A stretch of 64,000 nt of DNA from Pseudomonadota bacterium (GTDB lineage Bacteria > Desulfobacterota > Desulfobacteria > Desulfobacterales > RPRI01), in contig JBDRRF010000066.1 in NCBI GenBank assembly GCA_043825875.1, forward strand, positions 1 to 64,000. The letters run 5' to 3'. Shown here piece by piece: positions 3,559 through 27,977 of the stretch; the first letter of the stretch is position 1; each line of letters begins with the position of its first letter. Both the position numbers and the translations under genes were made by a program. The notes under the pieces were generated by a model. The model ran no database searches and was not told where the DNA came from. It saw only the letters and a program-made list of their open reading frames with translations.

Positions 3559-6330
3559 TTAGTTTTCAGGCCTTTGTATATCTAACTTATGCATTCTCGC
3601 TCTTAAAGTACTTGGGTGCAGACCTAAGATAGAAGCCGCTCCATCCTTTCCGTTAATGCGCCACCCGGTATGTGAAAGTATGTTAACAATTTGCATTCGT
3701 TCAACTTCTTCCAGGGTTTGTATATTTGTTGTGGAAAATAGAGGTGCTGTCTCAGGTTTATCCGCCACATGCAAAATATGCCCCTGGCATAAGATAACTG
3801 ATCTTTCAATGACACTTTCCAACTCACGTATATTGCCGGGCCATGTATAATCTTGCAATATTTTTATTGTCTCTTTAGAAACAGATGAAATCTGTTTCCC
3901 GTATTTTTTCGCATATTTTTCAATAAAGGCTATTACCAAAAGAGGTATGTCTTCTTTGCGCTCGCGCAATGGAGAAACGATGATGGGAAATACATTTAAC
4001 CGATAAAAAAGATCCTGCCTGAAGCGTCCTTTACGAACCTCTTCCTCGAGATTACGATTTGTTGTTGCAACGATACGCACATCTGCTTTGATAGTGTTGG
4101 AAGCGCCAAGACGTTCAAATTGGCCATGCTGGATTGCCCTAAGAAGTTTGGCCTGCATATCAAGAGGAAGTTCGCCAATTTCATCAAGACATAACGTAGA
4201 ACCATTTGCAATCTCAAACCGTCCGATTTGCCTTTTATCGGCTCCGGTATAAGCCCCTTTTTCTCTGCCAAACAGTTCACTCTCTATAAGATTAGATGGC
4301 AGGGCTGCACAATTTACTACTATTATCGGACGATCTTTGCGGGGGCTCATGCTATGAACAGCATTTGAAATAAGTTCTTTACCTGTACCGGTTTCGCCAA
4401 GAACAAGAACGGTCATACTTGTTGGAGCAACCTGCTCTACCTGGTAAAGCACTCGTTTTATGCTTTCGCTTTCACCAATTATATCGGTATACTGATATTT
4501 TATATTTATCTTCTGGCGAAGATAAATATTTTCAGCTTCCAGTTGCTCCTTTAATTTATTTATTTCAGAAAACGCATCACGGAGGGATTTATCTGCTTTT
4601 CGGTTCTCCTCTATTTGATGCTCAAGCCGCTTATTAGCAATAAGAAGTTCATTAGTACGCTCCATAACCCTTGATTCAAGATCGATGTTTGCCTTTTCTA
4701 AAGCTTTGGACATAAGTTTTCGCTCGGTGATATCGGAAAACATAATTGCGAATTGTCCCTGCTGGGGACTGATAATCCATGTTTCAAAATATTTTTTCAA
4801 CCCGGCAGAATAATTTTCATAAAGAACCGGTTCGCGTGTAACAGCAACTTTAGCATATATATCAAGCCAATATTTTTCCAAATCCGGCATAACTTCTTTA
4901 ACGGTTTTTCCGATAATACTTTCGGATTTGATACCGGTTAACTCTGTAAATGCCGGGTTTACAGAAATGAAACGATATTCGATGGGGTTGCCTGATTTAT
5001 CAGAAATGACTTCGTGAAGTATAAAACCCTGAGCAATATTTTCAAATAGTAATCTATACTTCTCCTCACTCTCTCTAAGTGCTTTATACGCCTGCCTGCG
5101 CTCAAGCTCACCTGAGGCCCGGATTGCAACTAATTTCAGTAGAGATTCTGCAAGTTTTGTATCTTTAAGAGATCTGCACCCGATAACCGTAATCAGACCG
5201 ATAGTTTTACCCTCAGAACTCCATAGAGATGCTCCAACATAGCTTTCGGCTTTTATCTCCTGAAGGATTATATCATCCGGGAATAAACGGCTTACATTTT
5301 TCGGAAAGTGGCATATTGCCTTGCCCACTACATCATTGCATGGCGTTCCTTTAAGAGCATAAGATATATTATCATCATGATTTCCATTGGAATACACAGC
5401 CAAGGTGTTTGCCGACAAACCGTCTTCCGATAAACGGCTAATAAAAACATATTCCATTGTGAGTGTTTCTGCCAAATAACATGCCAGTGACTTGAAGAAA
5501 TCTTCACCTGTAGCAGGCAAACCGCACTGCAACAAAAATATCTGGGCATTTTCAATTTGCTTGCGTTCGGTTATGTCCTGCACTATGCCTACAGACCGGA
5601 TGGGCTGTCCGGAGAGATCATAATCGGTTCGGCAAACCTCATACAACCATTTGATTCGTCCGTCTTTCATCAGCAGACGATGTTCTATTTCATACCTTGA
5701 CTTGTTTTTAACCGATTCGGTATAAGCCTTATTAATATCTTCCCGGTCATCAGGATGGATAGTCTTTAAGAAGGCTTCATAAGATGGGTTGAACATAGCC
5801 GGCTCTATTTCAAAAATTTCGAAAACCGTATCCGACCATTTCAGCTGTTTGGTTAAAAGGTTATATTCCCATCTGCCCATTCGGGCAATGCTTTGGGCTT
5901 CTTTTAGATTTTGCGCATATTCCCGAAGATTATTTTCTGCTTTTTTGTGTTCTGTAATATCGAGCCCATAAACATTTATATAATCAGCCTCAATGATAGG
6001 CGCAAATGTAAGAGAATAGACTCGTCCCTCACATTCAACTACAGTGTATTTAATTAATTTGGAATCAAAAACATCAAGACTTAATTTGCGCCAGTAGGAA
6101 GGCAAAGAACTGCCTTGTTCACACTTCCACATTTTCATTAAAGGTTGGGCAGAATTATTCGCATACAGCACAACACCTGCATTTGTAATTCTTAATACTG
6201 GATTAGGGTTTTCGTTTGGAAATTTTGAGAGGCTATCAATCGTTTTTTCCGTCAGATTGCGTTTTGCAGCATCTTTTTCTAATTCTGCTATTCTTTGTTC
6301 TAATTCGTTGTAGGTTGATTTTTCAGGCAT
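3559..6330 (-). CDS. Sigma-54-dependent enhancer-binding protein with PAS/PAS/GAF/PAS sensors and Fis HTH
   Basis: GETGTGKEL Walker A, ESELFG...[35 protein letters not shown] 'DIT' motifs. Confidence 0.92.
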
Positions 6331-13641: not shown

Positions 13642-13884
13642 TTGCCTATTGAGCAATATCTGCGAATTCTATCAACCAGGGGTAGTATTAGGGTATTAAA
13701 CTATTAAACTTAATTATATTGCAAATAAGATACAGAGTAATCGCATGCTAAAAGGTCGTGCCAATAGAATTAAAAAGAGAATAATAAATATTTAAGATGC
13801 AACCCTAATATGTTCAGAAAGACAAAGAAGGAGCTTGCAGGGGGAAAATCCGGGAGTATGCAAAGGAAGACAAGGAAGGAGATT

Positions 13885-14901
13885 ATGATAGACTACAGTG
13901 AATTGACCGCCCGTGAGCTGCTGTCGTGCATGGCGCTGGGTAAAGCCCTTACTTCCGAGCTGCGCTCTGAAGAGCTTTTCAGCATAATCCTCCATAAAAT
14001 CTCTGAATTCCTTCCGGCTGAGAATTGGTCATTGCTCCTTTTAGATGAGGCAGCAGGAGAACTTCGTTTTGAGGTGAGTGTTAATCTTAATCTTGAACAG
14101 GTGAACAATGTATGCTTGCCCCTTGGACAAGGAATTGCGGGAAAAGTGGCGCTGGAGCAAACGCCCATGGTCGTTGATAATACGATAAAATGTGAGTTTT
14201 TCTCGCCCCGGGTGGATCAAATCACGGGATGCTGCACAAGGTCCATTATCTGTGTCCCTCTTATTTTCGGCGGAAAAACTGTGGGAGTCATTGAAGTCGT
14301 GAATCCCAAAAGCTTAAAAGGTGATCCACTTCCGCTCCTTTCCATCATTGCGGATTACGCTGCCATCGCCGTCGAAAACATGCGCCGCTATCGCGAAATC
14401 CAAAATCTTGCGAGCCATGATGATTTGACAGGCCTTTACAATACGCGGCACCTGTATAGAGTCCTCGGCAGCCTTGTCAGAACGGCCGAGGAGACTAGGG
14501 GCACCTTCTCTCTGATTTTTATGGACATCGATCACTTCAAGAAGGTCGTGGACACTTACGGCCATCTCAAAGGCAGCCAGGCCATTCAAGAGGTCGCCGG
14601 AACCATCCGGGAGTGCCTTTCCGAACCGTCATTTGGCGTGGCCTATGGAGGGGATGAGTTCGTTGCTGTGTTACAGGGCTTTGATAAGGCACAAGCATTA
14701 AAAAAAGCTGAGGAGATCCGCTCCAGGATGAAGCAGACCATTTACCTCGCCAGCCAGGGCCATCTTCTGCGTCTGAACGCGAGCTTCGGCATCGCAACCT
14801 TTCCCGATGATGCCGACGATGTGACCGGTCTTCTTGCTCTTGCCGATCGCGCGATGTTCAACGTCAAAGAAGGAGGGAAAGACGCTATCAAGTTGGCCTA
14901 A
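13885..14901 (+). CDS. GAF-GGDEF diguanylate cyclase
   Basis: GAF domain (GQGIAG...SIICVPL), DDLTGLYN, DIDHFKKV, GGDEF, ADRAM. Start chosen after GGAG; the ORF extends upstream to 13810. Confidence 0.88.
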   Translation: MIDYSELTARELLSCMALGKALTSELRSEELFSIILHKISEFLPAENWSLLLLDEAAGELRFEVSVNLNLEQVNNVCLPLGQGIAGKVALEQTPMVVDNTIKCEFFSPRVDQITGCCTRSIICVPLIFGGKTVGVIEVVNPKSLKGDPLPLLSIIADYAAIAVENMRRYREIQNLASHDDLTGLYNTRHLYRVLGSLVRTAEETRGTFSLIFMDIDHFKKVVDTYGHLKGSQAIQEVAGTIRECLSEPSFGVAYGGDEFVAVLQGFDKAQALKKAEEIRSRMKQTIYLASQGHLLRLNASFGIATFPDDADDVTGLLALADRAMFNVKEGGKDAIKLA

Positions 14902-16738: not shown

Positions 16739-17635
16739 TCATCTTACAGGCCAGAGATAAAATTCCGATAATGGTTTATATCCCACTCCTATTATACCGT
16801 CTATCAAATATAAAACCCACGCGTAATCAACATCATACATACTTGTTGTTGAAGACCAGTAGAAATCCTGAACATCATTAAAAAGATGCTCAACCGGTAA
16901 TGCCGGCGAATGTTGACTTAAATCTATTAAGCTTTCTAATTCAAGAATATTTGGAACCCGCCAATCATTGTAACCATATTTACTTTCCATGTTCATTTCT
17001 ATCACTAAAGTAAAAACAGACTTCCAAGCTACTGCGTTTTTATTTAAATTTGCATCCTTCATCCATGTTAGATTAGTAGCATTGTCATATATAAAATTAG
17101 TATTTTCTGTAAAACGTTGTTTGCCGTAACTCAGGCCGGAGCAGTATTCACCGTCTTGCCCCGTATTATTACAATCTATAATAACTCCGCTTTCATCAAA
17201 ACAATTCTTTTGTCCTGTTTGAAATACCCTGCTTTTGTTATGATTGTCTGCAATGCGAACCGGCCAGACCATATACGAACCGTATTTCATTCCTTTAAAT
17301 ACTCTTGCTCCACCTAAATGAATGTACCATGCCTGGTTTGGCAACCTGGCGCAAGTTGAAGATGTCCAGTAGTATCCGGGGAATACATTAATAAAAGGGT
17401 GACCGGCGGGAATACTTGGATTAATCATTTCATGGCTTATCAGGCTGAACAATTCTTTACGATTCGGAAGCCTCCAGTCGTTATAACCATAAAGTCCTGA
17501 AAGATTGGTTTCTTTAATAGTATTTAATGCTTCTTCCCAGCTCATAGGAAAATCAAATAAAGAAGCATTTTTTGCCCACATCAAACCTGTATAAGTATCA
17601 ACTACAGTTTCATTTTCTGCTGAAAAACGGCTCAT
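16739..17635 (-). CDS. Lcl/DUF1566 tandem-domain protein
   Basis: Two repeats of D..TGLMW...GYNDWR(L/V)PN..EL.SL...YW(T/S)S...WPVR. Confidence 0.88.
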   Translation of the reverse strand: MSRFSAENETVVDTYTGLMWAKNASLFDFPMSWEEALNTIKETNLSGLYGYNDWRLPNRKELFSLISHEMINPSIPAGHPFINVFPGYYWTSSTCARLPNQAWYIHLGGARVFKGMKYGSYMVWPVRIADNHNKSRVFQTGQKNCFDESGVIIDCNNTGQDGEYCSGLSYGKQRFTENTNFIYDNATNLTWMKDANLNKNAVAWKSVFTLVIEMNMESKYGYNDWRVPNILELESLIDLSQHSPALPVEHLFNDVQDFYWSSTTSMYDVDYAWVLYLIDGIIGVGYKPLSEFYLWPVR

Positions 17636-17745
17636 AAGTTCAAAAGTTTGTCAGGAAAAAGACATCGCATATTATTATAGGTTTAAACAAACGGGAGAAA
17701 AATTATATGAAAGATTTTGGTGATTACTATTTAAAATCAGGTTCT

Positions 17746-20064
17746 CTAACTTGTTACTTTTAACACGTCATTTAATACTTTACTCAGTGCATTATCACCA
17801 AAAGGTTTTGGCATCATGCCTTTGAAACCATATTCACGAAAATTTGACATAATCGGATCATCAGAGTAACCACTTGACACAATGGCCTTTACTTCAGGAT
17901 CTATCTCAAGCAATATCTTTATTACATCCTTTCCTCCCATAGCACCGGGAATTGTCAAGTCCAGGATGACGGCATCATAGGGTTTTCCGGACTCCCAGGC
18001 TTTTTTATATAATGCAATCGCCTCATCACCATCTTTTGCGAACTCTGCTTCATATCCCAGCATATCCAGCATTTCTCCTATCATTAATCTTAAATATTTA
18101 TCATCATCCATTATAAGTATTTTACCCTTGCCTTTTAACAGGACAGATTCTTCTTTCAGCTGAATTTCTTTTCCGGAAGCAGGCAGGTAAATGTAAAATG
18201 TGGTTCCATAACCTAAACGAGAGTTTACCGATATGTGCCCGCCGTGCTTTTTGATAATAGAATAGGCTGTTGCAAGTCCGAGACCTATTCCCGTTTGCTT
18301 GGTTGAAAAATATGGATCAAATACCTTTGGAAGATACTTTTCATCTATGCCCATCCCATTATCCTTAATAGTAATCATGATGTATTTGCCCGGTTGTAAA
18401 GGGAGGCCATGCTTTTCTTCAATTAATTTATTTTCGGCACGAATCTGTATGATGCCACCATCCGGCATAGACTGGTTTGCATTTATAACAATATTGTTAA
18501 TAACCTGGCTTATCTGTCCAGTATCGATCTCAGCTGGCCGTAGGTCTTTTGCAATAGAGAAATCGCATCTCGATTTTGAGCCGGTCAATATAAAGCGGGA
18601 AGACTCTTCCAGAATTTTTGCAATTGAATAAACTTCCTTTACCGGTGCTCCACCTTTGGCAAAAGTCAACAATTGCATTGTTAGCGCCTGTGCCCTCTTA
18701 GAGGCAGCTTCCGTCGCACTCAGAAGATCAAATATCTTATGGTCGGATTTTATACTCATCTTGGCAAGGGAAATATTTCCTAAAATCACTGTCAGTATAT
18801 TATTAAAATCATGGGCTATGCCTCCTGCAAGAATACCGACTGATTCAAGTTTCTGAGACTTCTGAATATCTTCTTCCGTCTGTTTGCGCTCGGTGATGTT
18901 GTCGAACATCACAACAAAACACTCCTTACCAGGAGAATAGACCGAGAAGTCAAACCACATGTTCATGACGTTAACATAGTATTCGAAGCGCTCAGGCCGG
19001 CCGGTCAATGCCACAATGGCAAATCGTTCTAACAATTCAGGATCGGCTTTTTGGATACCGGGAATGACCTCTGAAACATTCTTACCGACAACATTCTTAA
19101 ATCCTGTCTGGTTTTGGAATGCGTTGTTGACAACAAGATAGACAAAGTCATGCGGTCGACCGTTCTCGAAAAGCATCCGGCAATACGCGAATCCCTCCAA
19201 CATATTTTCGAAAAGAGTCCGATAGCGCGTCTCGCTCTCACGAAGCGCTGTTTCTCTTACCTTTAAGGATTCAGCCATATTATTGAAAGCTTTTGCAAGT
19301 TCCCCTATTTCATCCTCTGTCTCAACAGGTACCGCCTCGACCACTCCTTCCATTCCTAATATTTTAACACTTTTAATTAATCTATTAAGAGGTTTTATTA
19401 TTCTATTTAATGCGATGTATGCAGTTGCAGAACCAATTATCAGGAAAACAATACCCATCAGGATGCTTTTAAATAAAATATCATTGAACTGCTTATGCAG
19501 CATTTCCTTATCCATCGTAATCTTGACAAATCCAATAAGACGGTCACTTCTCTGAAGGGGATTTTTAACAAAAAACATGGATTCTTCCACAAGGTGACCT
19601 GAGCTTGAGATTACAGGCGCCCAGAATTCTACATGGCTCTTATCCTCAAGATAAAAAGGGGAGAGAGACTCCCTCATTTTATCAAATATTTTTATTCTTC
19701 CTGATTCATCTCTATCACTTGGTTTTTCTGGAATTCTTGTTTTAAATCTTTCTTTACTCTTTAAAAGCTTCCCATCAAGATTGAACACAGAAACATCTAA
19801 GATATTTTCCTGTTGCAAAATTCCCTCAGCAGGACCCTCAAGCAGTTCTTTATTTTCCGAAAACACTCCAATCCTTGAGTTATAAGCAAGAACGCTTGCA
19901 AGTACTTTTCCATCTCTTATAAGATTGTCTGTGAGGGTGTTAATTTGGTTATGAATAAAGAGAGAAGTGAAAGAAACAGAAATAGCAAAGATAAAAAGGG
20001 TAATTGCAACAAAGACCTTTATGCGGAAATTTTCATTAATAATTTTAAGTAAATTCAAACTCAT
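17746..20064 (-). CDS. Hybrid sensor histidine kinase (periplasmic sensor, HAMP, PAS, HisKA, HATPase, REC)
   Basis: Two TM segments, DEIGELAKAFNNM HAMP, AGGIAHDFNNIL H-box, GLGLA G-box, receiver with ILDLT and KPF. Confidence 0.93.
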   Translation of the reverse strand: MSLNLLKIINENFRIKVFVAITLFIFAISVSFTSLFIHNQINTLTDNLIRDGKVLASVLAYNSRIGVFSENKELLEGPAEGILQQENILDVSVFNLDGKLLKSKERFKTRIPEKPSDRDESGRIKIFDKMRESLSPFYLEDKSHVEFWAPVISSSGHLVEESMFFVKNPLQRSDRLIGFVKITMDKEMLHKQFNDILFKSILMGIVFLIIGSATAYIALNRIIKPLNRLIKSVKILGMEGVVEAVPVETEDEIGELAKAFNNMAESLKVRETALRESETRYRTLFENMLEGFAYCRMLFENGRPHDFVYLVVNNAFQNQTGFKNVVGKNVSEVIPGIQKADPELLERFAIVALTGRPERFEYYVNVMNMWFDFSVYSPGKECFVVMFDNITERKQTEEDIQKSQKLESVGILAGGIAHDFNNILTVILGNISLAKMSIKSDHKIFDLLSATEAASKRAQALTMQLLTFAKGGAPVKEVYSIAKILEESSRFILTGSKSRCDFSIAKDLRPAEIDTGQISQVINNIVINANQSMPDGGIIQIRAENKLIEEKHGLPLQPGKYIMITIKDNGMGIDEKYLPKVFDPYFSTKQTGIGLGLATAYSIIKKHGGHISVNSRLGYGTTFYIYLPASGKEIQLKEESVLLKGKGKILIMDDDKYLRLMIGEMLDMLGYEAEFAKDGDEAIALYKKAWESGKPYDAVILDLTIPGAMGGKDVIKILLEIDPEVKAIVSSGYSDDPIMSNFREYGFKGMMPKPFGDNALSKVLNDVLKVTS

Positions 20065-20073
20065 TTCCTTCCT

Positions 20074-20976
20074 TTAGTCAATGATCCTTGCTTTCCTGAT
20101 AATATTTTCTTCAATATTAATTCCTAATTGTTTTGCTACATTAAGATTAATCGTTATAATTGCCTTTCTTGCATCTATCTGCTTACCATTCATTATATTA
20201 CTTCCTGAGAGTATCTTTTTAGCCACCTCTCCTGCCTGAGAACCCATATCAAAAGCATCTACACCTATAGACATAAGTGCTCCAACCTCCACATACTTTT
20301 CTGAAAAGGCAAGGATGGGGATTTTATTTTCAAGGGAGAAGAGAAGCATAAATTCAACTGTTTCAGGGGTAATCACCGTTAGATCCGGGAGTATCCAGAA
20401 GGCATCTATCTTTCCTTCCATATCTTTTATTAATTGAGGAACATCCTTAGAAATATAAACCTGCTTAGCAACCAGTTGAATACCAAGTTTTCCAGCGGCA
20501 TCTTTTGACTCTTTTGCAAGATGGCCTGTTCTATCTTTGTCATATAAAAGGCCGATAGCTTTTATTTCAGGCATTACGGATAGGAGAGTAGAAAGCTGCT
20601 CTTCCTGGGATATATTCATGCCGACACCGCTGATATTCTTTTCTCCTGAAAGTATGGACCATGGATTTAAGACCATGACATATATAACGGGAATATCTTT
20701 AATCCTTTTTACCTTCAAGAGTGCATTCACCCCTATTGCAAGAATCATATCAGGACTGATCTTATTGATTTCCCCTACAACATCTTTACCTTGCAATTCT
20801 GAGATGATTAGCCTTTTGATCCGGGCATCACAAGTATTTTTGAACCCCTCAATAGCATCTTCGTATGGCTGTACCCTGCTGCTTTGGACAACCACAACCT
20901 CTTGCCCGGCCCGGGCTAAACCCTGGCAAACAATTAAAAATAATATAATAACTAGTAAAGAAAGATTTCTTATCAC
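20074..20976 (-). CDS. Periplasmic ABC_sub_bind-type substrate-binding protein with no adjacent permease or ATPase
   Basis: Signal peptide; IGLLYD, DAFWILPD, GALMSIG, INLNVAKQLGI motifs. Confidence 0.85.
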   Translation of the reverse strand: MIRNLSLLVIILFLIVCQGLARAGQEVVVVQSSRVQPYEDAIEGFKNTCDARIKRLIISELQGKDVVGEINKISPDMILAIGVNALLKVKRIKDIPVIYVMVLNPWSILSGEKNISGVGMNISQEEQLSTLLSVMPEIKAIGLLYDKDRTGHLAKESKDAAGKLGIQLVAKQVYISKDVPQLIKDMEGKIDAFWILPDLTVITPETVEFMLLFSLENKIPILAFSEKYVEVGALMSIGVDAFDMGSQAGEVAKKILSGSNIMNGKQIDARKAIITINLNVAKQLGINIEENIIRKARIID

Positions 20977-21117
20977 AATATTATCATAAGTCAGCTTGGA
21001 ATTTGTAACAACGGCGCTTAGAGTTTTTATAAAGAAAATAAATTAATAACTTGAAAAAGATTAATAATGTTGCTAATAAATTATTAACATAAATTATTTG
21101 TTCTGAAAACTCTTTTT

Positions 21118-23091
21118 ATGAAGAAACCAGAAATGATTTATTCATGTAGCCATTTTCATAAAATATGCATCTTCTTGCTTTGTTTTGTCCTTACAATGAC
21201 TCCCTTTTGCGGGGCTTTCGCTGCCCAGTCTCAAGACGAAATGGATGTTCTTCGCCTGTTTTATAAGGAAAAAGACCTAGTTGTGTCTGCCACCAGGCAT
21301 CCTAAACCCATTTCCCAGGTTGCGGAAAACATCACGGTTGTCACTGCAAAAGAAATAGAGGAGATGAATGCCCATACTGTAGCGGAAGTCCTTGCAAGAA
21401 TTCCCGGCCTTTTTGTTGCTTTCAGCCAGGGCGCAGGAATCTTTGGCTCTACCTCCCTTACAAAAATTCAGGGTTCTGAAGACAGGCATGTTCTCGTCCA
21501 GGTTGATGGGGTAACCTGGAATTTTTTAAATAGCGGAGCCGCCGAAACCAATTCAATCCCTGTTGGCATTATAGAACGCATCGAGGTCATCAAAGGTCCC
21601 GCATCATCGGCCTGGGGCTCAGCTCTTGGCGGTGTGGTTAACATCATAACAAAGTCACCAGGAAGCGCAGAAAGACCTTCCGGTACCATAAGCGGCTCTT
21701 ATGGTGAGAAAAATACGCAGGATTACAGAGCCGAGATCTCGGGAAAAGAAGGGGTTATAGGCTATTATCTGTATGCCGGCAGGCAATATACCGAGGGTCA
21801 GATGCCTTCAATAGACTTTGATACCCATAGCTTTTATTCTAAATTTCATATCCCTTTTTCAGAAAATGTTGCGGTGGGTCTGAGTGCGGGATACAGCGAT
21901 CCGCAAAATGGCCTCGGCGATTTTGATAGTGGAGATTTCAGCTCAAAAAATAGCAGCCGCACATTTTTTACAACCGTCTCGCTTGATGCATCTCTTACCG
22001 GGGAGCTTGATTTCAACATATCCTTCCACCATTTCAAACAAAGAAGCGATATAGTAAATAATTTCCTTGGACTGGGAGGTTTCAGCACACCCGGTGAATT
22101 ATATTTAGATAGCCTTTATGATGAGAAAACTACGGGAGGAAGCGGCAAATTTGTATGGAAGTCCGGAAGGCACACCGCTGTTTTAGGTGTAGATGCTGAC
22201 AGGGGAAAGCTTGATCAGTCACTTACCTCAGGAGCACTTCTCCAATTATACGGCGCCCCGGCAGAATCGACTGTACATCCCGATGTCGAACGGTGGGCGG
22301 TATATATCAACGACACCATAGTAATCGACAGATTGTCAATCACACCCGGCATCCGGTATGATCATAACAGCATTACAGGCTCCTTTACAAGCCCCTCTCT
22401 GGGAGCTACCTATCGGCTTGGTGAAGATTCAATTTTAAGGGCTTCTGTAGCAAGAGGCTTTACCATACCTCCCCTTTCCTGGACCTCAGGTGGAGGATTG
22501 TTCCTTGATCCGAATTCGTCTCTTAAGCCCGAAAAAGTCTGGTCGTATCAAACAGGTTTAGAATCAACAGCTTTAAAGTACCTCTGGGCCAAGGCTACGG
22601 TGTTTCGCCATGATATAAAAGATGTCTTGAAAAAGGAGCCGTTTGCAGGAGGAGCGCCGGTATTTAATGACCTTTATATTAACAGCGGTTCAAGCAGGCG
22701 TCAGGGGATTGAACTTGAAGCCGAAACAGTCCCGGTGTATAATTTTTCTTGCCGGTCGGGATTTGCCTATGTGGATATAGATCCTGACAACGAGTTCGGA
22801 GCTTCCGAAATCTATTCCTGGAATATCATTTTTAAATATGATGACAAAAAATCCTTTCGTGCCCAGATCTTTGGCCATTATGTATGGTGGGACTTAGATC
22901 CTTCAGCTGGGGCAAGCTATGATGATTTAATCTGGGATTTAAACCTTAATAAAAAAATATGCTCTTACAAAAGAACTTCTACGGAAATATTTCTTACGGC
23001 TCATAACATCTTTAACGGGTCTCAATATACCTTTAGCGATATTCAAAACCCCGAAAGATGGGTTGAGGCCGGGTTGCGCTTTTCATTTTAA
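21118..23091 (+). CDS. TonB-dependent outer-membrane receptor
   Basis: Signal peptide, VVSATR TonB-box region, plug motif IERIEVIKGPASSAWGS...GGVVNIITK, C-terminal aromatic RFSF. Confidence 0.93.
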   Translation: MKKPEMIYSCSHFHKICIFLLCFVLTMTPFCGAFAAQSQDEMDVLRLFYKEKDLVVSATRHPKPISQVAENITVVTAKEIEEMNAHTVAEVLARIPGLFVAFSQGAGIFGSTSLTKIQGSEDRHVLVQVDGVTWNFLNSGAAETNSIPVGIIERIEVIKGPASSAWGSALGGVVNIITKSPGSAERPSGTISGSYGEKNTQDYRAEISGKEGVIGYYLYAGRQYTEGQMPSIDFDTHSFYSKFHIPFSENVAVGLSAGYSDPQNGLGDFDSGDFSSKNSSRTFFTTVSLDASLTGELDFNISFHHFKQRSDIVNNFLGLGGFSTPGELYLDSLYDEKTTGGSGKFVWKSGRHTAVLGVDADRGKLDQSLTSGALLQLYGAPAESTVHPDVERWAVYINDTIVIDRLSITPGIRYDHNSITGSFTSPSLGATYRLGEDSILRASVARGFTIPPLSWTSGGGLFLDPNSSLKPEKVWSYQTGLESTALKYLWAKATVFRHDIKDVLKKEPFAGGAPVFNDLYINSGSSRRQGIELEAETVPVYNFSCRSGFAYVDIDPDNEFGASEIYSWNIIFKYDDKKSFRAQIFGHYVWWDLDPSAGASYDDLIWDLNLNKKICSYKRTSTEIFLTAHNIFNGSQYTFSDIQNPERWVEAGLRFSF

Positions 23092-23154
23092 TGTTGCATA
23101 ACTGTTAAAGACGTGTTAAAAGCGATTCTATAAAAATCTTTAAACTTTCAGATG

Positions 23155-23241
23155 CATGCCGAACTCGATGAGCCTGCCCCGGTAAGATATAGGTCGGGGG
23201 TATCCAAAACATCTTAGATATAATGGATACTGGCGTTTGCC
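23155..23241. repeat. Degenerate REP-like palindromic element between the receptor and the peptide gene
   Basis: CCCCGG...TCGGGG hairpin plus GTATCCA...TGGATAC inverted repeat. Confidence 0.4.
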
Positions 23242-23319
23242 AATATTACAATATAAAAGCGTTTTTCGAAATTTTAATGATTCTTTAAACGAAAAGACAT
23301 CAAAAAAAGGAGGAAAGGC

Positions 23320-23445
23320 ATGAAAGAAGAAAAAGCAAAAGAAACTAAAGAAGAAATAATGGTACTTGATGAAGGTATTGATGTAGATGATACAGTCGAT
23401 ATGGGTATAATGTGTTGTTCCGGTGCATTAGCTCCTTTTAGATGA
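23320..23445 (+). CDS. Uncalled 41-aa RiPP precursor peptide (geopeptide-like) MKEEKAKETKEEIMVLDEGIDVDDTVDMGIMCCSGALAPFR
   Basis: Manual translation; AGGAGG RBS at 23308-13; acidic leader with VLDEG motif and C-terminal CC core; immediately upstream of a rSAM/SPASM gene. Confidence 0.88.
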   Translation: MKEEKAKETKEEIMVLDEGIDVDDTVDMGIMCCSGALAPFR

Positions 23446-23451
23446 TTAATC

Positions 23452-23496
23452 TTAACAAAAAGGAGCGGCAATAGCACTGCCTCTCCTTTTTGTTAA
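23452..23496 (+). terminator. Strong hairpin between precursor and maturase
   Basis: TTAACAAAAAGGAG-CGGCA...TGCCT-CTCCTTTTTGTTAA. Confidence 0.85.
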
Positions 23497-23511
23497 CTTT
23501 CTCTGGACACT

Positions 23512-24819
23512 ATGCTACTTTCCCGCTACCTCAAGGTATATCCTTACGGAGAAAGCGATGATGAATTGTTGCTTTTTTCTACCCGTAAGATGTCAAAAAT
23601 TCTCCTTAATAAAGAAACCTATCAGGCCATTGAAAATAACGGCGGGCTTTCTGCTTCAGATGAGGCTCTTTTATCAAAGCTTGGCATGATAGTTCATGAC
23701 CGGGAAGTGGAAAAGATAGACTTATTTAATTTTTTGGATGAACTTAATGTAAAAAATAACGGATTGCATGTCATAGTTGTCCTTAATTTGGACTGCAATT
23801 TTGCCTGCACATATTGTTATGAAGGGGGCATGAAGGGAAAGCTCTATATGTCAGATGAAACTGCGGATAATCTTGTAGATTTCATCAAAAATAATTTCCC
23901 TCCCCATAAAAAATCTCTTCTTATAGATTTTTTCGGAGGAGAGCCTCTTTTGAGCATTGACCTTATTAAACGTATTTCCCAAGCATTAAAGTCATTTATC
24001 GAAAGCAGAGGAGCCTCTTACAGCTTTACCCTTGTAACAAATGGTTCTCTCTTTACAAAAAAGACAGCAGAAGAATTAGTTGCATTAGGGCTTGAAGGCG
24101 TAAAAATAACTTTAGACGGCCCGGCCGAAACTCATAATCAATCAAGGCCTTTTAAATCGGGTGCCAAAAGCTTTGATACGCTCATTAAGAATATCAAAGA
24201 GACTTGCGATCTTGTAAAAATAGGCATAGGTGGAAATTTTACAAAGGAAAATTACGAAAAATTTCCTTTACTTCTTGATTATCTGGCAAGAGAAGGGCTA
24301 ACGCCGGATAAAATTGCCACGGTAAAGTTTGACCCTGTAATGAAACAGCCTGAAGGGAATTTTTCGCCTCCCGAATATGCAAGCGGCTGTACTTCAGTTA
24401 ATGAGCCATGGCTGATGGGTGTTGTTGCGTACTTGCGGGAAGAGATTTTAAAAAGAGGATACAATACGCAAAAGATTATGCCCATGACCTGCATGACAGA
24501 ATCTACAAACTCCTATGTGGTTAATTTCGATGGCGTTATTTACAAATGTCCGGGTTTTATTGGCAAAAAGGGCTATGATGTTGGGACTCTTTTGACAGGC
24601 GCAAAAGATTATGCTGCTTATAAGCCCACCATCTGGAAAAATGAGGAGTGTTCCGGTTGTGAGTATCTTCCTCTTTGTTACGGAGGATGCAGATATATGA
24701 CGTTTTTGCGCACTGGAACAATAGATACGGTGGATTGCCAAAAGGCCTACCTTGATGCCTCACTTGAAACATTGATCAAGCAGGACATTAAATATAAACT
24801 AAGAGCGGACAACCGTTGA
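23512..24819 (+). CDS. Radical SAM/SPASM peptide maturase (geopeptide-maturase-like)
   Basis: CNFACTYC, FFGGEPLL, TNG, TLDG; SPASM cysteines C...YKC...CSGC-x5-C-x3-C-x15-C; ~80-aa N-terminal extension resembling an RRE. Confidence 0.92.
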   Translation: MLLSRYLKVYPYGESDDELLLFSTRKMSKILLNKETYQAIENNGGLSASDEALLSKLGMIVHDREVEKIDLFNFLDELNVKNNGLHVIVVLNLDCNFACTYCYEGGMKGKLYMSDETADNLVDFIKNNFPPHKKSLLIDFFGGEPLLSIDLIKRISQALKSFIESRGASYSFTLVTNGSLFTKKTAEELVALGLEGVKITLDGPAETHNQSRPFKSGAKSFDTLIKNIKETCDLVKIGIGGNFTKENYEKFPLLLDYLAREGLTPDKIATVKFDPVMKQPEGNFSPPEYASGCTSVNEPWLMGVVAYLREEILKRGYNTQKIMPMTCMTESTNSYVVNFDGVIYKCPGFIGKKGYDVGTLLTGAKDYAAYKPTIWKNEECSGCEYLPLCYGGCRYMTFLRTGTIDTVDCQKAYLDASLETLIKQDIKYKLRADNR

Positions 24820-25391
24820 GCAAATTAAGAGCCTTAAATCTACTGATATTTACCACTGTCAGCTTTATGTGAACTGTTATATTCGAACCAATAGATCCCT
24901 TTGCAGAAAACCCTTTCTCTTTTTAACAGTCATATTCTAATGAAATTATCCTCTTTCTTTGCACGATTGTTCTTCAAACATATAAGTTGTCTCCAGGCAG
25001 CAGAACAACGCTGTTGTGTCTTTAAGTTATCAGGAGTAGAGGGGGTATTAGGGATACTCCACATATTTATAATTTATATGGTATATAAATGTTATGCAAA
25101 GATATTCTCAGATAGCCTCTCCTGGAGCCACCATATCATCGGTGAATTTACTTTCTACATATATTCCCTCCGACCCCAATATTCCCGCTGTGTCAACTAA
25201 TCCTTTTTAATCATATTTTGATTGCGCTTGGGTATCATTTTATTTGATGCAATTCTATACAAGTTGTGGCAGGCAATATTTTCTTGACATACTATCATTT
25301 TCTTTTATACTTTATACTTATAAAAGCAATATCTTATCTATTACAGGACATCCCCAATCGACAATGCAGCCACTTTAAAAAGAGGAACATC

Positions 25392-26198
25392 ATGTCAATT
25401 GTTACAATATCCAGAGGATCTTACAGCCGGGGAAAGGAAATTGCTGAAAAGCTGGCCGGAGCATTAGGCTATGAATGTATTTCCCGTGAAATTATCCTCG
25501 AAGCTTCCGAGCAGTTCAATATACCGGAAATAAAGCTTGTACGGGCAATCCATGATGCACCATCTGTTCTGGACCGCTTTTCCTATGGCAAGGAAAGATA
25601 TATTGCATTCTTCCGTGCGGCTTTTTTAAAACGCCTGCAAAAGGATAATCTTGTTTATCACGGCCTGGCCGGCCACGTCTTTGTGCAGAAAATCCCGCAT
25701 ATATTGAAAGTTCGCATTATCGCCAATCTGGAAGACCGGATAAACGAAGAAATGAAACGCGAAAATATTTCGGCTGAGCAGGCCCGTCAAATACTGGTCA
25801 AAGATGATGCCGAGCGCAGAAAATGGAGCATGGCGCTTTACAATTTAGACACATGGGACCAGCGGTTTTATGACATGACCCTGCATTTGGACACCATGGG
25901 CGTGGAAGACGCAGTTTCAACCATCCTTCATATACTTGAGCGCCCCTGCTTCCGAACAACTCCTAAAAGCCGGGAGCTGCTTGACAATCTGTCACTAAGT
26001 GCCCAGGCAGAGGCTGCCCTGGTAAATGAATTCCCGAAAGCAACTGTTGATGCCGGAAAGGGGGTTGTTTACATCAGTATCCGTGGATCTCTTGTTGATG
26101 AAAAAAGGATCAATACAAAAGTAAATCACCTAATCAAAAATGTTGCGGGTACTAAAAAAGTACACATCAACATTGTCCCGCATCATATAGAAGATTGA
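25392..26198 (+). CDS. Cytidylate-kinase-like family protein with C-terminal BON-like domain
   Basis: IVTISRGSYSRGKEIAEKLA, LKVRIIA, DDAERRKW; start MSIVTIS after AGAGGA. Confidence 0.8.
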   Translation: MSIVTISRGSYSRGKEIAEKLAGALGYECISREIILEASEQFNIPEIKLVRAIHDAPSVLDRFSYGKERYIAFFRAAFLKRLQKDNLVYHGLAGHVFVQKIPHILKVRIIANLEDRINEEMKRENISAEQARQILVKDDAERRKWSMALYNLDTWDQRFYDMTLHLDTMGVEDAVSTILHILERPCFRTTPKSRELLDNLSLSAQAEAALVNEFPKATVDAGKGVVYISIRGSLVDEKRINTKVNHLIKNVAGTKKVHINIVPHHIED

Positions 26199-26201
26199 TA
26201 T

Positions 26202-27977
26202 ATGAAATTTGAAAGATTTCAAAACACGCCTAATTCGGCAATAACTTATCTGCGGAAAATCTTCCCGTTCCTGCGCTGGTGGAATTTCATCGGATGGGAT
26301 ACGGTTCGGGCAGATCTTATTGCGGGATTAACAGGTGCGATTATCGTTTTGCCCCAAGGGGTTGCGTTTGCAATGATTGCCGGGCTGCCGCCGGAATACG
26401 GCTTATATACTGCTATGGTGGTTCCTCTGGTCGCCGCATTGTTCGGTTCATCCCTGCATCTGATATCCGGGCCCACTACCGCCATTTCCATTGTGATTCT
26501 TTCTTCCCTTAGTTCCATCGCCGCCCCCGGCTCAGTGGAATATATCCGGCTGGCCATCACTCTAACCTTTCTGGCCGGTGTTTTTCAGTTAGCATTCGGC
26601 CTGGCACGAATGGGAATTTTGGTGAATTTTGTCTCCCATACCGTGATTGTAGGATTTACGGCCGGTGCTGCTATACTGATTGCCACCAGCCAGATAAAGC
26701 ATGTGTTCGGTCTCCACCTTCCGGGATCAGAATCCTTTTTTGCCGAATTAATGAATATTATTCGGGAAATCAGAGGTATAAACCCCTATGCCATGATTGT
26801 TTCCGCCGGAACTCTGGCTTGTGCCGTGCTGTTTAAATTATACCGGCCCCGCTGGCCGCGGCTGTTGATTGCCATGGTAATAGGCAGTCTGATCGCCGTG
26901 TCTATCGGTGCAGAATCCCATAATATCCGGTTGATGGAAAGTCTGCCCGGCCATCTGCCGCCATTTTCAATACCGGATTTTTCCTTAGATGCCATAAGAT
27001 TACTCTCGCCCAAAGCGTTTCCGGTAGCGCTTATAGGTCTTATCGAAGCCCTTTCAATCGCACGTTCAATTGCGGCAAAATCCCGCCAGCTTATCGACAG
27101 CAATCAGGAGTTTATCGGCCAGGGGCTGTCCAATATTTTCGGTAGTTTTTTTTCCTGTTACGCGGGTTCCGGTTCATTTACCCGGTCCGGAATTAATTAT
27201 CATGCCGGTGCAATGACACCGCTGTCCGCGGTTTTTTCCGCCGTGTTCCTGGCACTGATCCTGCTTCTTATAGCACCGTTAACCGAATACCTGCCAATCT
27301 CTGCAATGGGCGGGGTGATTCTGTTGGTAGCATTTAACTTGATTGATTTTCATCATATCCGAAGTATTATCAAAACCAGCAAACATGAAACAGCAATACT
27401 TCTTACAACATTTGCCGCCACCCTGATTTTTGATCTGGAATTTGCCATATACGGCGGCGTGCTAATGTCCCTGTTTCTGTATCTTAGCCGGACCGCCCAT
27501 CCTGAGGTCGTTAGCCTTATTCCCAATCCGGATTCCCGCGGGCAATATCTTGCCCAGGGCGATTCTCAATGCCCGGCGTTTAAAATCATCCGCGTTGATG
27601 GACCTCTTTTTTTTGGCGCGGTGAACCATGTCGTGGAATATTTTCAGGCCATTGACAAACAACTTCCCCGTAAAAGCCATCTGCTGATTGTGGCCTGCGG
27701 AATCAATTTTATTGATATCACCGGTGCCGAAATGCTGGTCAATGAAGCCAGTCGCAGAAGAGGTCTTCGCGGCGATTTATACCTTTGTGGCCTCAAACAA
27801 AATGCCAGGAATTTTCTTAAGCGGGGAGGATATCTCGACAGCATTGGAGCTGATCATATTTTTGAATCGGAAACAGAAGCCATCAAAACAATCCTGTCAA
27901 ACATTGATAACCCAGAATGCCGAAAATGCAAATCACCCCTTTTCAAAGAATGTGAGCACAGGAAGCAATTTGGATAA
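26202..27977 (+). CDS. SulP/SLC26 anion transporter with STAS domain
   Basis: DLIAGLT...PQGVAFA...GLY, GPT, NQEFIGQG, GSFTRS, STAS FIDITG. Confidence 0.93.
   Translation: MKFERFQNTPNSAITYLRKIFPFLRWWNFIGWDTVRADLIAGLTGAIIVLPQGVAFAMIAGLPPEYGLYTAMVVPLVAALFGSSLHLISGPTTAISIVILSSLSSIAAPGSVEYIRLAITLTFLAGVFQLAFGLARMGILVNFVSHTVIVGFTAGAAILIATSQIKHVFGLHLPGSESFFAELMNIIREIRGINPYAMIVSAGTLACAVLFKLYRPRWPRLLIAMVIGSLIAVSIGAESHNIRLMESLPGHLPPFSIPDFSLDAIRLLSPKAFPVALIGLIEALSIARSIAAKSRQLIDSNQEFIGQGLSNIFGSFFSCYAGSGSFTRSGINYHAGAMTPLSAVFSAVFLALILLLIAPLTEYLPISAMGGVILLVAFNLIDFHHIRSIIKTSKHETAILLTTFAATLIFDLEFAIYGGVLMSLFLYLSRTAHPEVVSLIPNPDSRGQYLAQGDSQCPAFKIIRVDGPLFFGAVNHVVEYFQAIDKQLPRKSHLLIVACGINFIDITGAEMLVNEASRRRGLRGDLYLCGLKQNARNFLKRGGYLDSIGADHIFESETEAIKTILSNIDNPECRKCKSPLFKECEHRKQFG

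Follow-up and report, generated by a model that had tools for sequence, protein, structure and literature searches.

Five neighbouring genes in a 64,000-nucleotide stretch of Desulfobacterales DNA (GenBank assembly GCA_043825875.1, contig JBDRRF010000066.1, positions 1 to 64,000; hereafter the window) form one conserved unit. They encode a 41-residue peptide with two adjacent cysteines, a radical S-adenosylmethionine (SAM) enzyme with a SPASM domain as its predicted maturase, a TonB-dependent receptor, a periplasmic binding protein of family PF04392 and a hybrid sensor histidine kinase. The cassette is read here as a module by which a geopeptide would be made, taken up and sensed, with an autoinducer-like, strain-specific peptide signal as its most likely role; on this reading our judgement is evenly divided. 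The elements of the cassette are listed below.

17746..20064, minus strand: hybrid sensor histidine kinase, 772 amino acids, from Pfam matches and sequence.
20074..20976, minus strand: PF04392 (ABC_sub_bind) periplasmic binding protein, 300 amino acids, from Pfam, NCBIfam and a signal sequence.
20977..21117, no strand assigned: AT-rich divergent spacer of 141 bp, a putative promoter region.
21118..23091, plus strand: TonB-dependent receptor, 657 amino acids, from Pfam Plug and barrel matches.
23200..23252, plus strand: palindrome and sigma-70-like promoter match, consensus matches only.
23320..23445, plus strand: 41-residue Cys-Cys precursor peptide, with homologous small open reading frames (ORFs) at the same position in relatives.
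23452..23496, plus strand: hairpin between the peptide and maturase genes, from a predicted fold and an inverted repeat.
23512..24819, plus strand: radical SAM/SPASM geopeptide maturase, 435 amino acids, from a TIGR04280 match.

A preliminary description of this DNA had proposed five genes in two divergent units, and all five were recovered at their described positions in the ORF list and in Pfam and NCBIfam scans. The 141-bp AT-rich spacer between the units and the 9-bp gap between the binding-protein and kinase genes were likewise confirmed. Domain searches covered 14 ORFs around the cassette and 32 of the 48 window ORFs of at least 150 amino acids. As had been described, no ABC permease or ATPase adjoined the binding protein among these scanned ORFs, which also contained no ABC transporter, TonB/ExbBD genes, C39 peptidase, exporter, leader protease or DNA-binding response regulator, and no sigma or anti-sigma genes.

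For comparison, 80 loci, each with flanks of up to 10 kb, were fetched by means of an alignment of 15 maturases and, together with the window (81 loci), searched by tblastn with the window proteins. The maturases of the 80 loci were 46-81% identical to that of the window, and their hosts were Desulfobacterales, other Thermodesulfobacteriota, Nitrospirota/Thermodesulfovibrionia, Geobacteraceae, Syntrophales and one Spirochaetota metagenome-assembled genome (MAG). The receptor gene was located directly upstream of the maturase unit on the same strand in 70 of the 72 loci with at least 1 kb of upstream sequence, the exceptions being L017 and L019. The binding protein was present in 48 of the 53 loci with at least 4 kb upstream (absent from L019, L028, L034, L040 and L085); its gene was divergent, as in the window, in 44 and co-directional downstream in four. 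A kinase adjoined the binding protein in 37 of the 44 loci with at least 6.5 kb upstream (exceptions L019, L028, L034, L085, L066, L069 and L071), and in 36 of 41 pairs in which the neighbour was a cluster-3 kinase the two genes were separated by -64 to +36 bp. The recurrence of receptor, binding protein and kinase around maturase homologues, which had been suggested as a check, was therefore observed (70/72, 48/53 and 37/44). Because it recurs in dozens of distant genomes, the arrangement is far beyond chance. One MAG carried three cassettes (L066, L069 and L070) with three different core peptides, each with its own receptor and binding protein, and with one kinase only.

When the 1033 called ORFs of the loci were clustered, only two further recurrent neighbours appeared, a half-size major facilitator superfamily (MFS) protein in 22 loci and a LuxR-type response regulator in 13. 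The half-size protein (188 amino acids, about 4-6 predicted membrane helices, matching positions 9-178 of the 347 in MFS_1) is encoded directly after the maturase, for example at L026:6547-7110, L042:11319-11876 and L071:11294-11857, and on its sequence it is a candidate exporter. The window encodes neither protein, and in its genome no close relative of either adjoins the cassette. No recurrent ABC transporter cluster was found in the 81 loci. In 18 loci without the half-size protein or the regulator, the genes after the maturase encoded regulators, a sulfatase, a transposase or unrelated products, with no exporter or protease among them.

The association was also examined in the reverse direction. 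The search covered 400 genomes sampled evenly across the phylum and used the binding protein, TIGR04280 and the receptor as queries; the place tables were cross-checked by hand. Thirty maturase genes scored over the cut-off, in 26 of the 400 genomes; for 23, the contig also carried a binding-protein match no more than 7 kb away, and the remaining seven were in fragmented assemblies with a binding-protein match on another contig. Receptor orthologues outside the window (E ≤ 1e-60) stood beside a TIGR04280-type maturase in 31 of 38 cases, 28 of these maturases scoring over the cut-off and three below it. Five of the other seven orthologues were at contig ends, and two had no maturase (one on contig 22 of G255 near 96 kb, the other in G223). 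It had been stated beforehand that the proposed circuit would be contradicted if orthologues of its receiving components usually occurred without the peptide and maturase. For the receptor the opposite was observed; the binding-protein/kinase pair was found alone in a minority only, with in-clade pairs in four genomes.

To place these pairs, a tree of 68 binding proteins was calculated with a quick IQ-TREE run with no rows left out. The 51 cassette binding proteins and five contig-truncated ones formed one clade (SH-aLRT 97). Three of the 12 unlinked binding proteins examined (L091, L093 and L094, from genomes G232 and G049) fell inside this clade, and each of the three is paired with a kinase and has its own regulator. 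Two of these loci, L091:9881-13041 and L093:6321-10957, hold in-clade binding-protein/kinase/regulator sets with no receptor, peptide or maturase, and their regulators are of LuxR type and REC-GAF-HD type, that of L093 being counted as HD-GYP-type. Such orphan pairs may be eavesdropping sensors or sensors of another ligand. The receptor is thus nearly exclusive to the cassette, to which the binding-protein/kinase pair is linked in most cases though not in all. PF04392 proteins of the outgroup were encoded between one to three TonB receptors and genes for CheR, CheW, a methyl-accepting chemotaxis protein (with HAMP) and CheC/CheX, as in L096:955-10434, L098:5893-14786 and L100:6160-13625, with a CobT-like gene also nearby in L100. 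Because the outgroup adjoins both TonB receptors and chemotaxis genes, the PF04392 family appears to pair with receptors and transducers more widely, and these loci are a possible route from TonB import into chemotaxis.

The maturase matched TIGR04280, "geopeptide radical SAM maturase", over positions 1-428 of 428 with 561.3 bits (E 1.4e-168, cut-off 400), and a search of its own genome returned the same result. TIGR04280 is graded a hypothetical equivalog. At E ≤ 1e-40, 1701 homologues were found, several of which are named geopeptide maturase by NCBI. The SPASM motif is defined as Cx9-15Gx4C ... Cx2Cx5Cx3C ... C. The window enzyme carries the radical SAM motif CxxxCxxC at C95/C99/C102 and the SPASM residues C327...G341...C346, C380/C383/C389/C393 and C409; the cluster cysteines were invariant in 15 homologues, and the enzyme classes as a radical SAM/SPASM protein. 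The best models outside the family scored far lower than their cut-offs (CefB, 197.8 bits against 600; TIGR04463, 172.6 against 525; Clo7bot, 146.1 against 600; PapB, 139.7 against 340). The nearest solved relative by sequence was 5wgg/5why (E 9.7e-26), which we take to be CteB, a thioether-forming enzyme. By analogy, the proposed cross-links in the core from its two cysteines are probably thioethers.

On these matches the peptide and maturase are assigned to the geopeptide family (TIGR04280 for the enzyme, TIGR04229 for the precursor), a family that is named but unstudied in the literature searched. No paper using the term geopeptide or TIGR04280 was found in that literature, most subscription journals being outside its coverage. 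The earlier statement that no characterised example of this architecture was known agrees with these searches, in which none was found; it had missed that the peptide and maturase belong to a named family.

Two observations on related enzymes were made in passing. The window's genome encodes a second SPASM paralogue (G000:C79:70787-72037; 185.8 bits to TIGR04280, below the cut-off), and some 120-135 kb from it on that contig are a receptor of only distant similarity (26% identity) and a full-length but likewise distant kinase match (23%); this region may be another locus for a ribosomally synthesized and post-translationally modified peptide (RiPP). In five loci (L016:2415-4499, L046:2635-4806, L048:5019-7100, L049:10001-12181 and L073:3628-5793) the maturase continues into a fused, soluble extension (about 290 amino acids, no Pfam match) that is absent from the window's genome. 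A conserved RY[I/V]DDFID motif in the extension is reminiscent of DDxxD in terpene and prenyl synthases. The same fusion is suggested in G297, G202 and G211 by open frames of 711-735 amino acids.

The 41-residue peptide ends ...GIMCCSGALAPFR, with the core CCSGALAPFR. Its ATG is preceded by GGAGG at a distance of 7 nt, and its leader is acidic and contains the motif VLDEGID. Against the 22 positions of the geopeptide precursor model TIGR04229 it scored only 6.9 bits (E 6.2, cut-off 30) and is for that reason considered a divergent precursor. In the window a short precursor gene immediately precedes the maturase gene in the same orientation, and the same is seen at 72 of the 81 loci. Those loci were identified by searching all 81, window included, for small ORFs between receptor and maturase with the leader motif and a C-terminal Cys-Cys core (one false hit, L044, was dropped); the invariance of the two cysteines in the 72-locus set is by construction, because Cys-Cys was a search criterion. 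A tblastn search with the window peptide, independent of that criterion, recovered 16 of the 72 loci. The leaders of the relatives are E/K-rich and continue with I/V-I/V-V-L-D-x-G-I/V-D. The cores have the consensus CCxGxxxP[F/I/L]R, are 10-14 residues long and number 71 distinct sequences among the 72 loci; Gly4 is present in 38, Pro8 in 50 and Arg10 in 52 of the 72, and positions 3, 5-7 and 9 are highly variable. Tandem precursor copies were found in L020 (three), L022 (four) and L088 (two).

The binding protein matched PF04392 (ABC_sub_bind) with 120.9 bits and has an N-terminal signal sequence. It fell short of the TrpX equivalog NF041285 (88.3 bits, cut-off 390), and with this score and no ABC genes nearby it does not class as a TrpX-type aromatic amino-acid ABC binding protein. 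Among solved proteins it is related to 3lkv, 6hni and 3lft (E 5e-19 to 3e-16), whose ligands are Phe, Tyr and Trp (PMC6816091; PMC10443332). The coding strand between its stop and the kinase ATG, 9 bp in length, reads AGGAAGGAA and resembles a ribosome-binding site. As a separate observation, the cassette binding-protein gene of one complete genome (G102:C1:2071052-2071897) contains an in-frame TAG and is a possible pseudogene or sequencing error. Ligands of solved PF04392 proteins, which comprise three structures only, are L-Trp, L-Tyr or L-Phe according to the accessible portions of two reports (PMC10443332; PMC6816091). In the portion accessible of the second, two selectivity residues are named for such a protein (PMC6816091).

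Pfam matches in the kinase were sCache_4 (23.5 bits, cut-off 22.1), HAMP, HisKA, HATPase_c and a receiver domain. Its predicted layout is a transmembrane (TM) segment, a periplasmic single-Cache domain (approximately residues 38-198), a second TM segment, HAMP, a PAS-like region, HisKA, HATPase and receiver. The earlier designation as a HAMP/PAS hybrid kinase holds for the HAMP domain and the hybrid architecture; the PAS match remained below threshold (PAS_8, 17.1 bits, cut-off 21.8), and the periplasmic Cache domain had not been described. A binding protein without a transporter is encoded together with a kinase having two TM segments around a Cache domain. When 25 cassette kinases of relatives were scanned with Pfam, HAMP was found in all 25 at approximately residues 215-290 and sCache_4 in 15 at E ≤ 0.01, 10 of these exceeding the Pfam cut-off. 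The outputs of the same 25 kinases varied: 20 were hybrids with a receiver, two had HisKA_3, two had HisKA without a receiver and one had HisKA_2 with GAF. Regulators adjoining the cassettes varied as well; besides the LuxR-type regulators in 13 loci, there was an NtrC-type one in L032 and an HD-GYP-type one in L029. A conserved input half with a swapped output is expected if the conserved function is the detection of one kind of periplasmic ligand. Prediction of a complex between residues 25-300 of the binding protein and 38-198 of the kinase, each with an alignment, gave a score that was not specific against one control.

The receptor contains only Plug (residues 66-173) and barrel domains in Pfam, with no N-terminal signalling domain. 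It is small, about the size of BtuB, with a 22-strand-type barrel and a C-terminal Phe. In the three closest relatives the start aligns with the second ATG of the window gene, at 21133, and the first ATG is not conserved, so that the spacer may be 156 bp. The receptor did not reach the BtuB model TIGR01779 (142.8 bits, cut-off 599.7), and BtuB chains in the PDB matched it only in the plug region, residues 53-205. Among family models it matched B12, siderophore and heme receptors best, in every case far short of the cut-off, and the PqqU model gave 47.7 bits against a cut-off of 1200. BtuB genes are usually preceded by a cobalamin riboswitch; a riboswitch ahead of this receptor was considered and rejected, as there was no Rfam match at E ≤ 1 in 17000-26000. 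The receptor is also not of the FecA cell-surface-signalling type, since it has no STN domain and no sigma/anti-sigma pair was present among the scanned window ORFs. No close paralogue of the receptor, binding protein or peptide was found in the window's genome, the next best matches being 26% and 27% identical.

Covariation of peptide, enzyme and sensor was assessed by partial Mantel tests on pairwise distances for the 46 loci with all parts (4999 permutations; rank-based values in parentheses). The p-values are uncorrected for about 30 tests, the partial Mantel test is liberal for related sequences, and the effects are weak. The core was correlated with the binding protein given the maturase (r 0.20 (0.22), p 0.022 (0.011)); the values for core and maturase given the binding protein were r 0.14 (0.03), p 0.031 (0.35). 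The leader was correlated with the maturase given the binding protein (r 0.39 (0.25), p 0.0002), and its correlation with the binding protein given the maturase was not significant in the 46 loci (r 0.01 (-0.06)). In the 37 loci with a kinase, the core was correlated with the periplasmic domain of the kinase (r 0.22, p 0.009), the control being its cytoplasmic core (r 0.14, p 0.07). Given the maturase, both the core (r 0.18-0.22, p 0.004-0.023) and the leader (r 0.15, p 0.002-0.008) were correlated with the receptor; receptor distances are collinear with maturase distances and, the leader correlation being significant too, inseparable from them. The pattern, a weak one, fits recognition of the leader by the maturase and of the core by the sensor. 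The predicted covariation of the core was accordingly seen, weakly and given the maturase, for the binding protein, and the part concerning the receptor could not be separated from the maturase.

A make, take-up and sense module could operate as follows. The maturase would recognise the VLDxG-type leader and cross-link the C-terminal CCxGxxxPFR core. The product would be released, possibly through the half-size MFS protein whose gene follows that of the maturase in many relatives, no exporter gene being among the scanned ORFs of the window. Because it would be too large for porins, it would re-enter the periplasm through the dedicated TonB-dependent receptor and there be bound by the transporter-less PF04392 protein. 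The binding protein, alone or loaded, would act on the Cache domain of the co-translated kinase and alter its phosphorylation output, which, by way of a response regulator encoded elsewhere in the genome, would probably feed back on the divergent promoters. A more far-reaching version is TonB-powered peptide quorum sensing across two membranes, in which a cross-linked peptide of about 10 residues is the signal and hypervariable cores with matching binding proteins define private 'pherotypes'. We put this version forward tentatively, as possible and still rather doubtful. It would extend the same logic of receptor, PF04392 protein and transducer to chemotaxis in the related clusters.

Several observations weigh against a self-made peptide signal. 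An exporter, a leader protease and a DNA-binding response regulator are absent from the scanned window ORFs, and the half-size MFS protein, in 22 loci, is the only recurrent transporter-like neighbour in the relatives. The solved ligands of PF04392 proteins are single aromatic amino acids, and for this reason the pocket may suit a small molecule over a 10-residue peptide. At L017 (2328-2438) and L019 (9813-9926) a maturase is accompanied by a Trp-rich Cys-Cys peptide with no receptor or binding protein; these cores begin CCCWGP... and CCWGPS..., and conserved genes of 265 and about 515 amino acids without a Pfam match lie downstream. The parts also occur apart in the other direction. The maturase-less receptor in G255 is paired with a binding protein, and the four genomes with in-clade orphan pairs, G232, G049, G108 and G133, contain no maturase and no receptor orthologue at E ≤ 1e-30; they are 96%, 100%, 97% and 79% complete, respectively, and the G108 and G133 contigs end just beyond the pair. 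The built-in Cys-Cys criterion, the collinearity of the receptor and the weak, uncorrected covariation count on the same side.

Three other explanations of the cassette were considered. The product may be a small molecule, the Cys-Cys unit giving a cofactor-like or redox-active compound and the rest of the core being discarded, as PQQ (pyrroloquinoline quinone) and mycofactocin are cut out of their peptides; the receptor would then scavenge the compound, and the binding protein and kinase would signal how much is available and so allow its synthesis to be tuned. This would agree with a small BtuB-like receptor, appropriate to a compound no larger than about 1 kDa, with the lack of a conserved protease or peptide exporter in the loci, and with the conservation of only Cys-Cys, Gly4, Pro8 and Arg10, free variation elsewhere being the pattern of discarded residues. 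It would also agree with the single amino acids reported, in the accessible portions of the two sources, as PF04392 ligands (PMC10443332; PMC6816091). We nevertheless consider a small molecule unlikely: the core tracks the binding protein and the periplasmic domain of the kinase beyond the maturase, if weakly, which is unexpected if the variable residues are discarded, and the nearest relatives of the maturase (CefB, TIGR04463, Clo7bot, PapB and 5wgg) cross-link peptides and are not cofactor synthases. Somewhat less probable again is a peptide metallophore with a sensing arm, which the preliminary description had offered as its alternative. Here the peptide would bind a scarce metal outside the cell, the receptor would import the complex, and sensing by the binding protein and kinase would raise production, in the manner of siderophore systems. 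A dedicated TonB receptor beside a biosynthetic operon is the usual metallophore signature, the best (sub-cut-off) receptor matches are to B12, siderophore and heme receptors, and two adjacent cysteines are potential metal ligands; the hosts are anaerobes according to their record titles, and metals in anaerobic habitats are often bound by sulfide. Against this, the 81 loci share no inner-membrane importer, reductase or metal-responsive regulator, the window scans revealed none, and no Rfam element was found in 17000-26000. Potential metal-binding residues beyond Cys-Cys are not conserved among the 71 distinct cores of 72 loci, and thioether formation by the SPASM enzyme, if it acts like its relatives, would consume the thiols.

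Alternatively, a foreign compound, for example a nutrient or the product of a competitor, might be what the receptor, binding protein and kinase detect, and they would only switch on a peptide that acts internally or in defence. In-clade binding-protein/kinase pairs do occur without peptide, maturase and receptor, related binding proteins operate alongside chemotaxis genes, whose usual role is the sensing of foreign compounds, and no exporter is present among the scanned window ORFs. This explanation appears improbable given that in 70 of 72 loci the receptor has the same orientation as the precursor and maturase and its orthologues are seldom found elsewhere, that core and binding protein co-vary, and that multi-cassette genomes provide each peptide with a receptor and binding protein of its own. 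A bacteriocin was set aside, as a producer would hardly encode the entry receptor of a toxin beside the toxin, and no immunity gene recurs.

The non-coding DNA of the cassette contains several candidate control elements. The divergent spacer (20977-21117) has a G+C content of 21.3%, compared with 38.6% across the window, and a putative regulatory role. Parts of it are conserved as blocks among the three closest relatives, and it includes a direct repeat of 19 nt, AATAAATTAATAAC.../AATAAATTATTAAC..., with copies 38 nt apart. Upstream of the peptide gene, a palindrome with 15-nt arms (23200-23230) overlaps the sigma-70-like match (23224-23252). The hairpin just 3' of the peptide stop (45 nt, -24.8 kcal/mol, z -5.67) was matched in stability by 0 of 200 shuffles and forms an inverted repeat at 23452-23496 with 19-nt arms that are 95% complementary. 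It was not listed by an intrinsic terminator scan of the plus strand, and termination there is uncertain because the T-run belongs to the stem; judged from its sequence and position between the precursor and maturase genes, it is likely an attenuator or transcript stabiliser. None of 62 loci had a sigma-54 promoter with at least 9 of 11 consensus positions and GG and GC in place, either upstream of the receptor or in the receptor-peptide gap. A 923-residue PAS-rich sigma-54 activator is encoded at window positions 3559-6330 (minus strand), 11 kb from the kinase, and the cassette has no sigma-54 promoter match.

The flanks of the cassette in the window consist of housekeeping genes. An Lcl_C (DUF1566-type) protein is encoded just downstream of the kinase (16739-17635, minus strand), a GAF-GGDEF cyclase at 13810-14901 (plus strand), and a cytidylate-kinase-like gene followed by a SulP/STAS transporter gene at 25266-27977 (plus strand). 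None of these flanking genes is conserved beside the cassette in the relatives.

Peptide pheromones are textbook knowledge for Gram-positive bacteria; for bacteria with an outer membrane, the prevailing view is that small diffusible molecules are the main signals. The cassette offers a candidate, open to experimental test, for signalling by peptides across two membranes in anaerobes of environmental importance. If the proposal is true, it would provide the first function for the geopeptide family, for transporter-less PF04392 proteins and for sCache_4 kinases; if the product is a metallophore or cofactor instead, the cassette would still represent a new class of natural product equipped with dedicated uptake and feedback. 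The analysis adds the linkage tests made in the reverse direction, the orphan pairs, the kinases with swapped outputs, an outgroup linked to chemotaxis, and the split covariation of leader and core.

Parts of the cassette resemble known systems. No published case joining all five parts was found in the literature searched, and as far as that search extends the constant company of receptor, binding protein and kinase with the geopeptide pair is undescribed. The geopeptide system itself is alike in having a maturase over the cut-off and a Cys-Cys peptide gene directly upstream, and unlike in that the window precursor is sub-threshold; the names cover peptide and enzyme only, and the same literature yielded neither a function nor a product for the family, nor any link to a receptor, binding protein or kinase. 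CteB, PapB and CefB, of the SCIFF and ranthipeptide groups, share the radical SAM core, the full set of SPASM cysteines and a cysteine-containing core peptide, whereas the window maturase is far below their family cut-offs and its core, CCxGxxxPFR, differs. LuxP-LuxQ and TorT-TorS are binding-protein-dependent sensor kinases, and like the cassette they have a transporter-less periplasmic binding protein encoded beside a membrane kinase with a periplasmic domain. The cassette differs from them in the PF04392 family, the single Cache domain and the proposal of a self-made ligand first pumped in by a TonB receptor.

A self-made, peptide-derived product with its own TonB-dependent importer, as proposed for the cassette, is also known. 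Methanobactin operons combine the precursor MbnA with the TonB-dependent importer MbnT, and PQQ has the receptor PqqU. No MbnB/MbnC-type enzymes or uptake set were found in the Pfam scans of the window and of the relatives' neighbours, which included no Mbn-specific models. In PfeS/PfeR-PfeA, imported enterobactin is sensed by a two-component system; in the cassette, sensing would go through a separate binding protein. The Itf cluster of Bacteroides, in the accessible portion of its description, is a radical SAM RiPP cluster holding a TonB-dependent transporter (PMC11002830). That cluster has a C39 peptidase or ABC exporter, and none was present among the cassette neighbours scanned. The quorum-sensing systems of Gram-positive bacteria, such as Agr and ComCDE, likewise combine a ribosomal peptide that has a hypervariable core with a membrane kinase. 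The hosts of the cassette differ from theirs in having two membranes, so that entry of the peptide into the periplasm would need energy.

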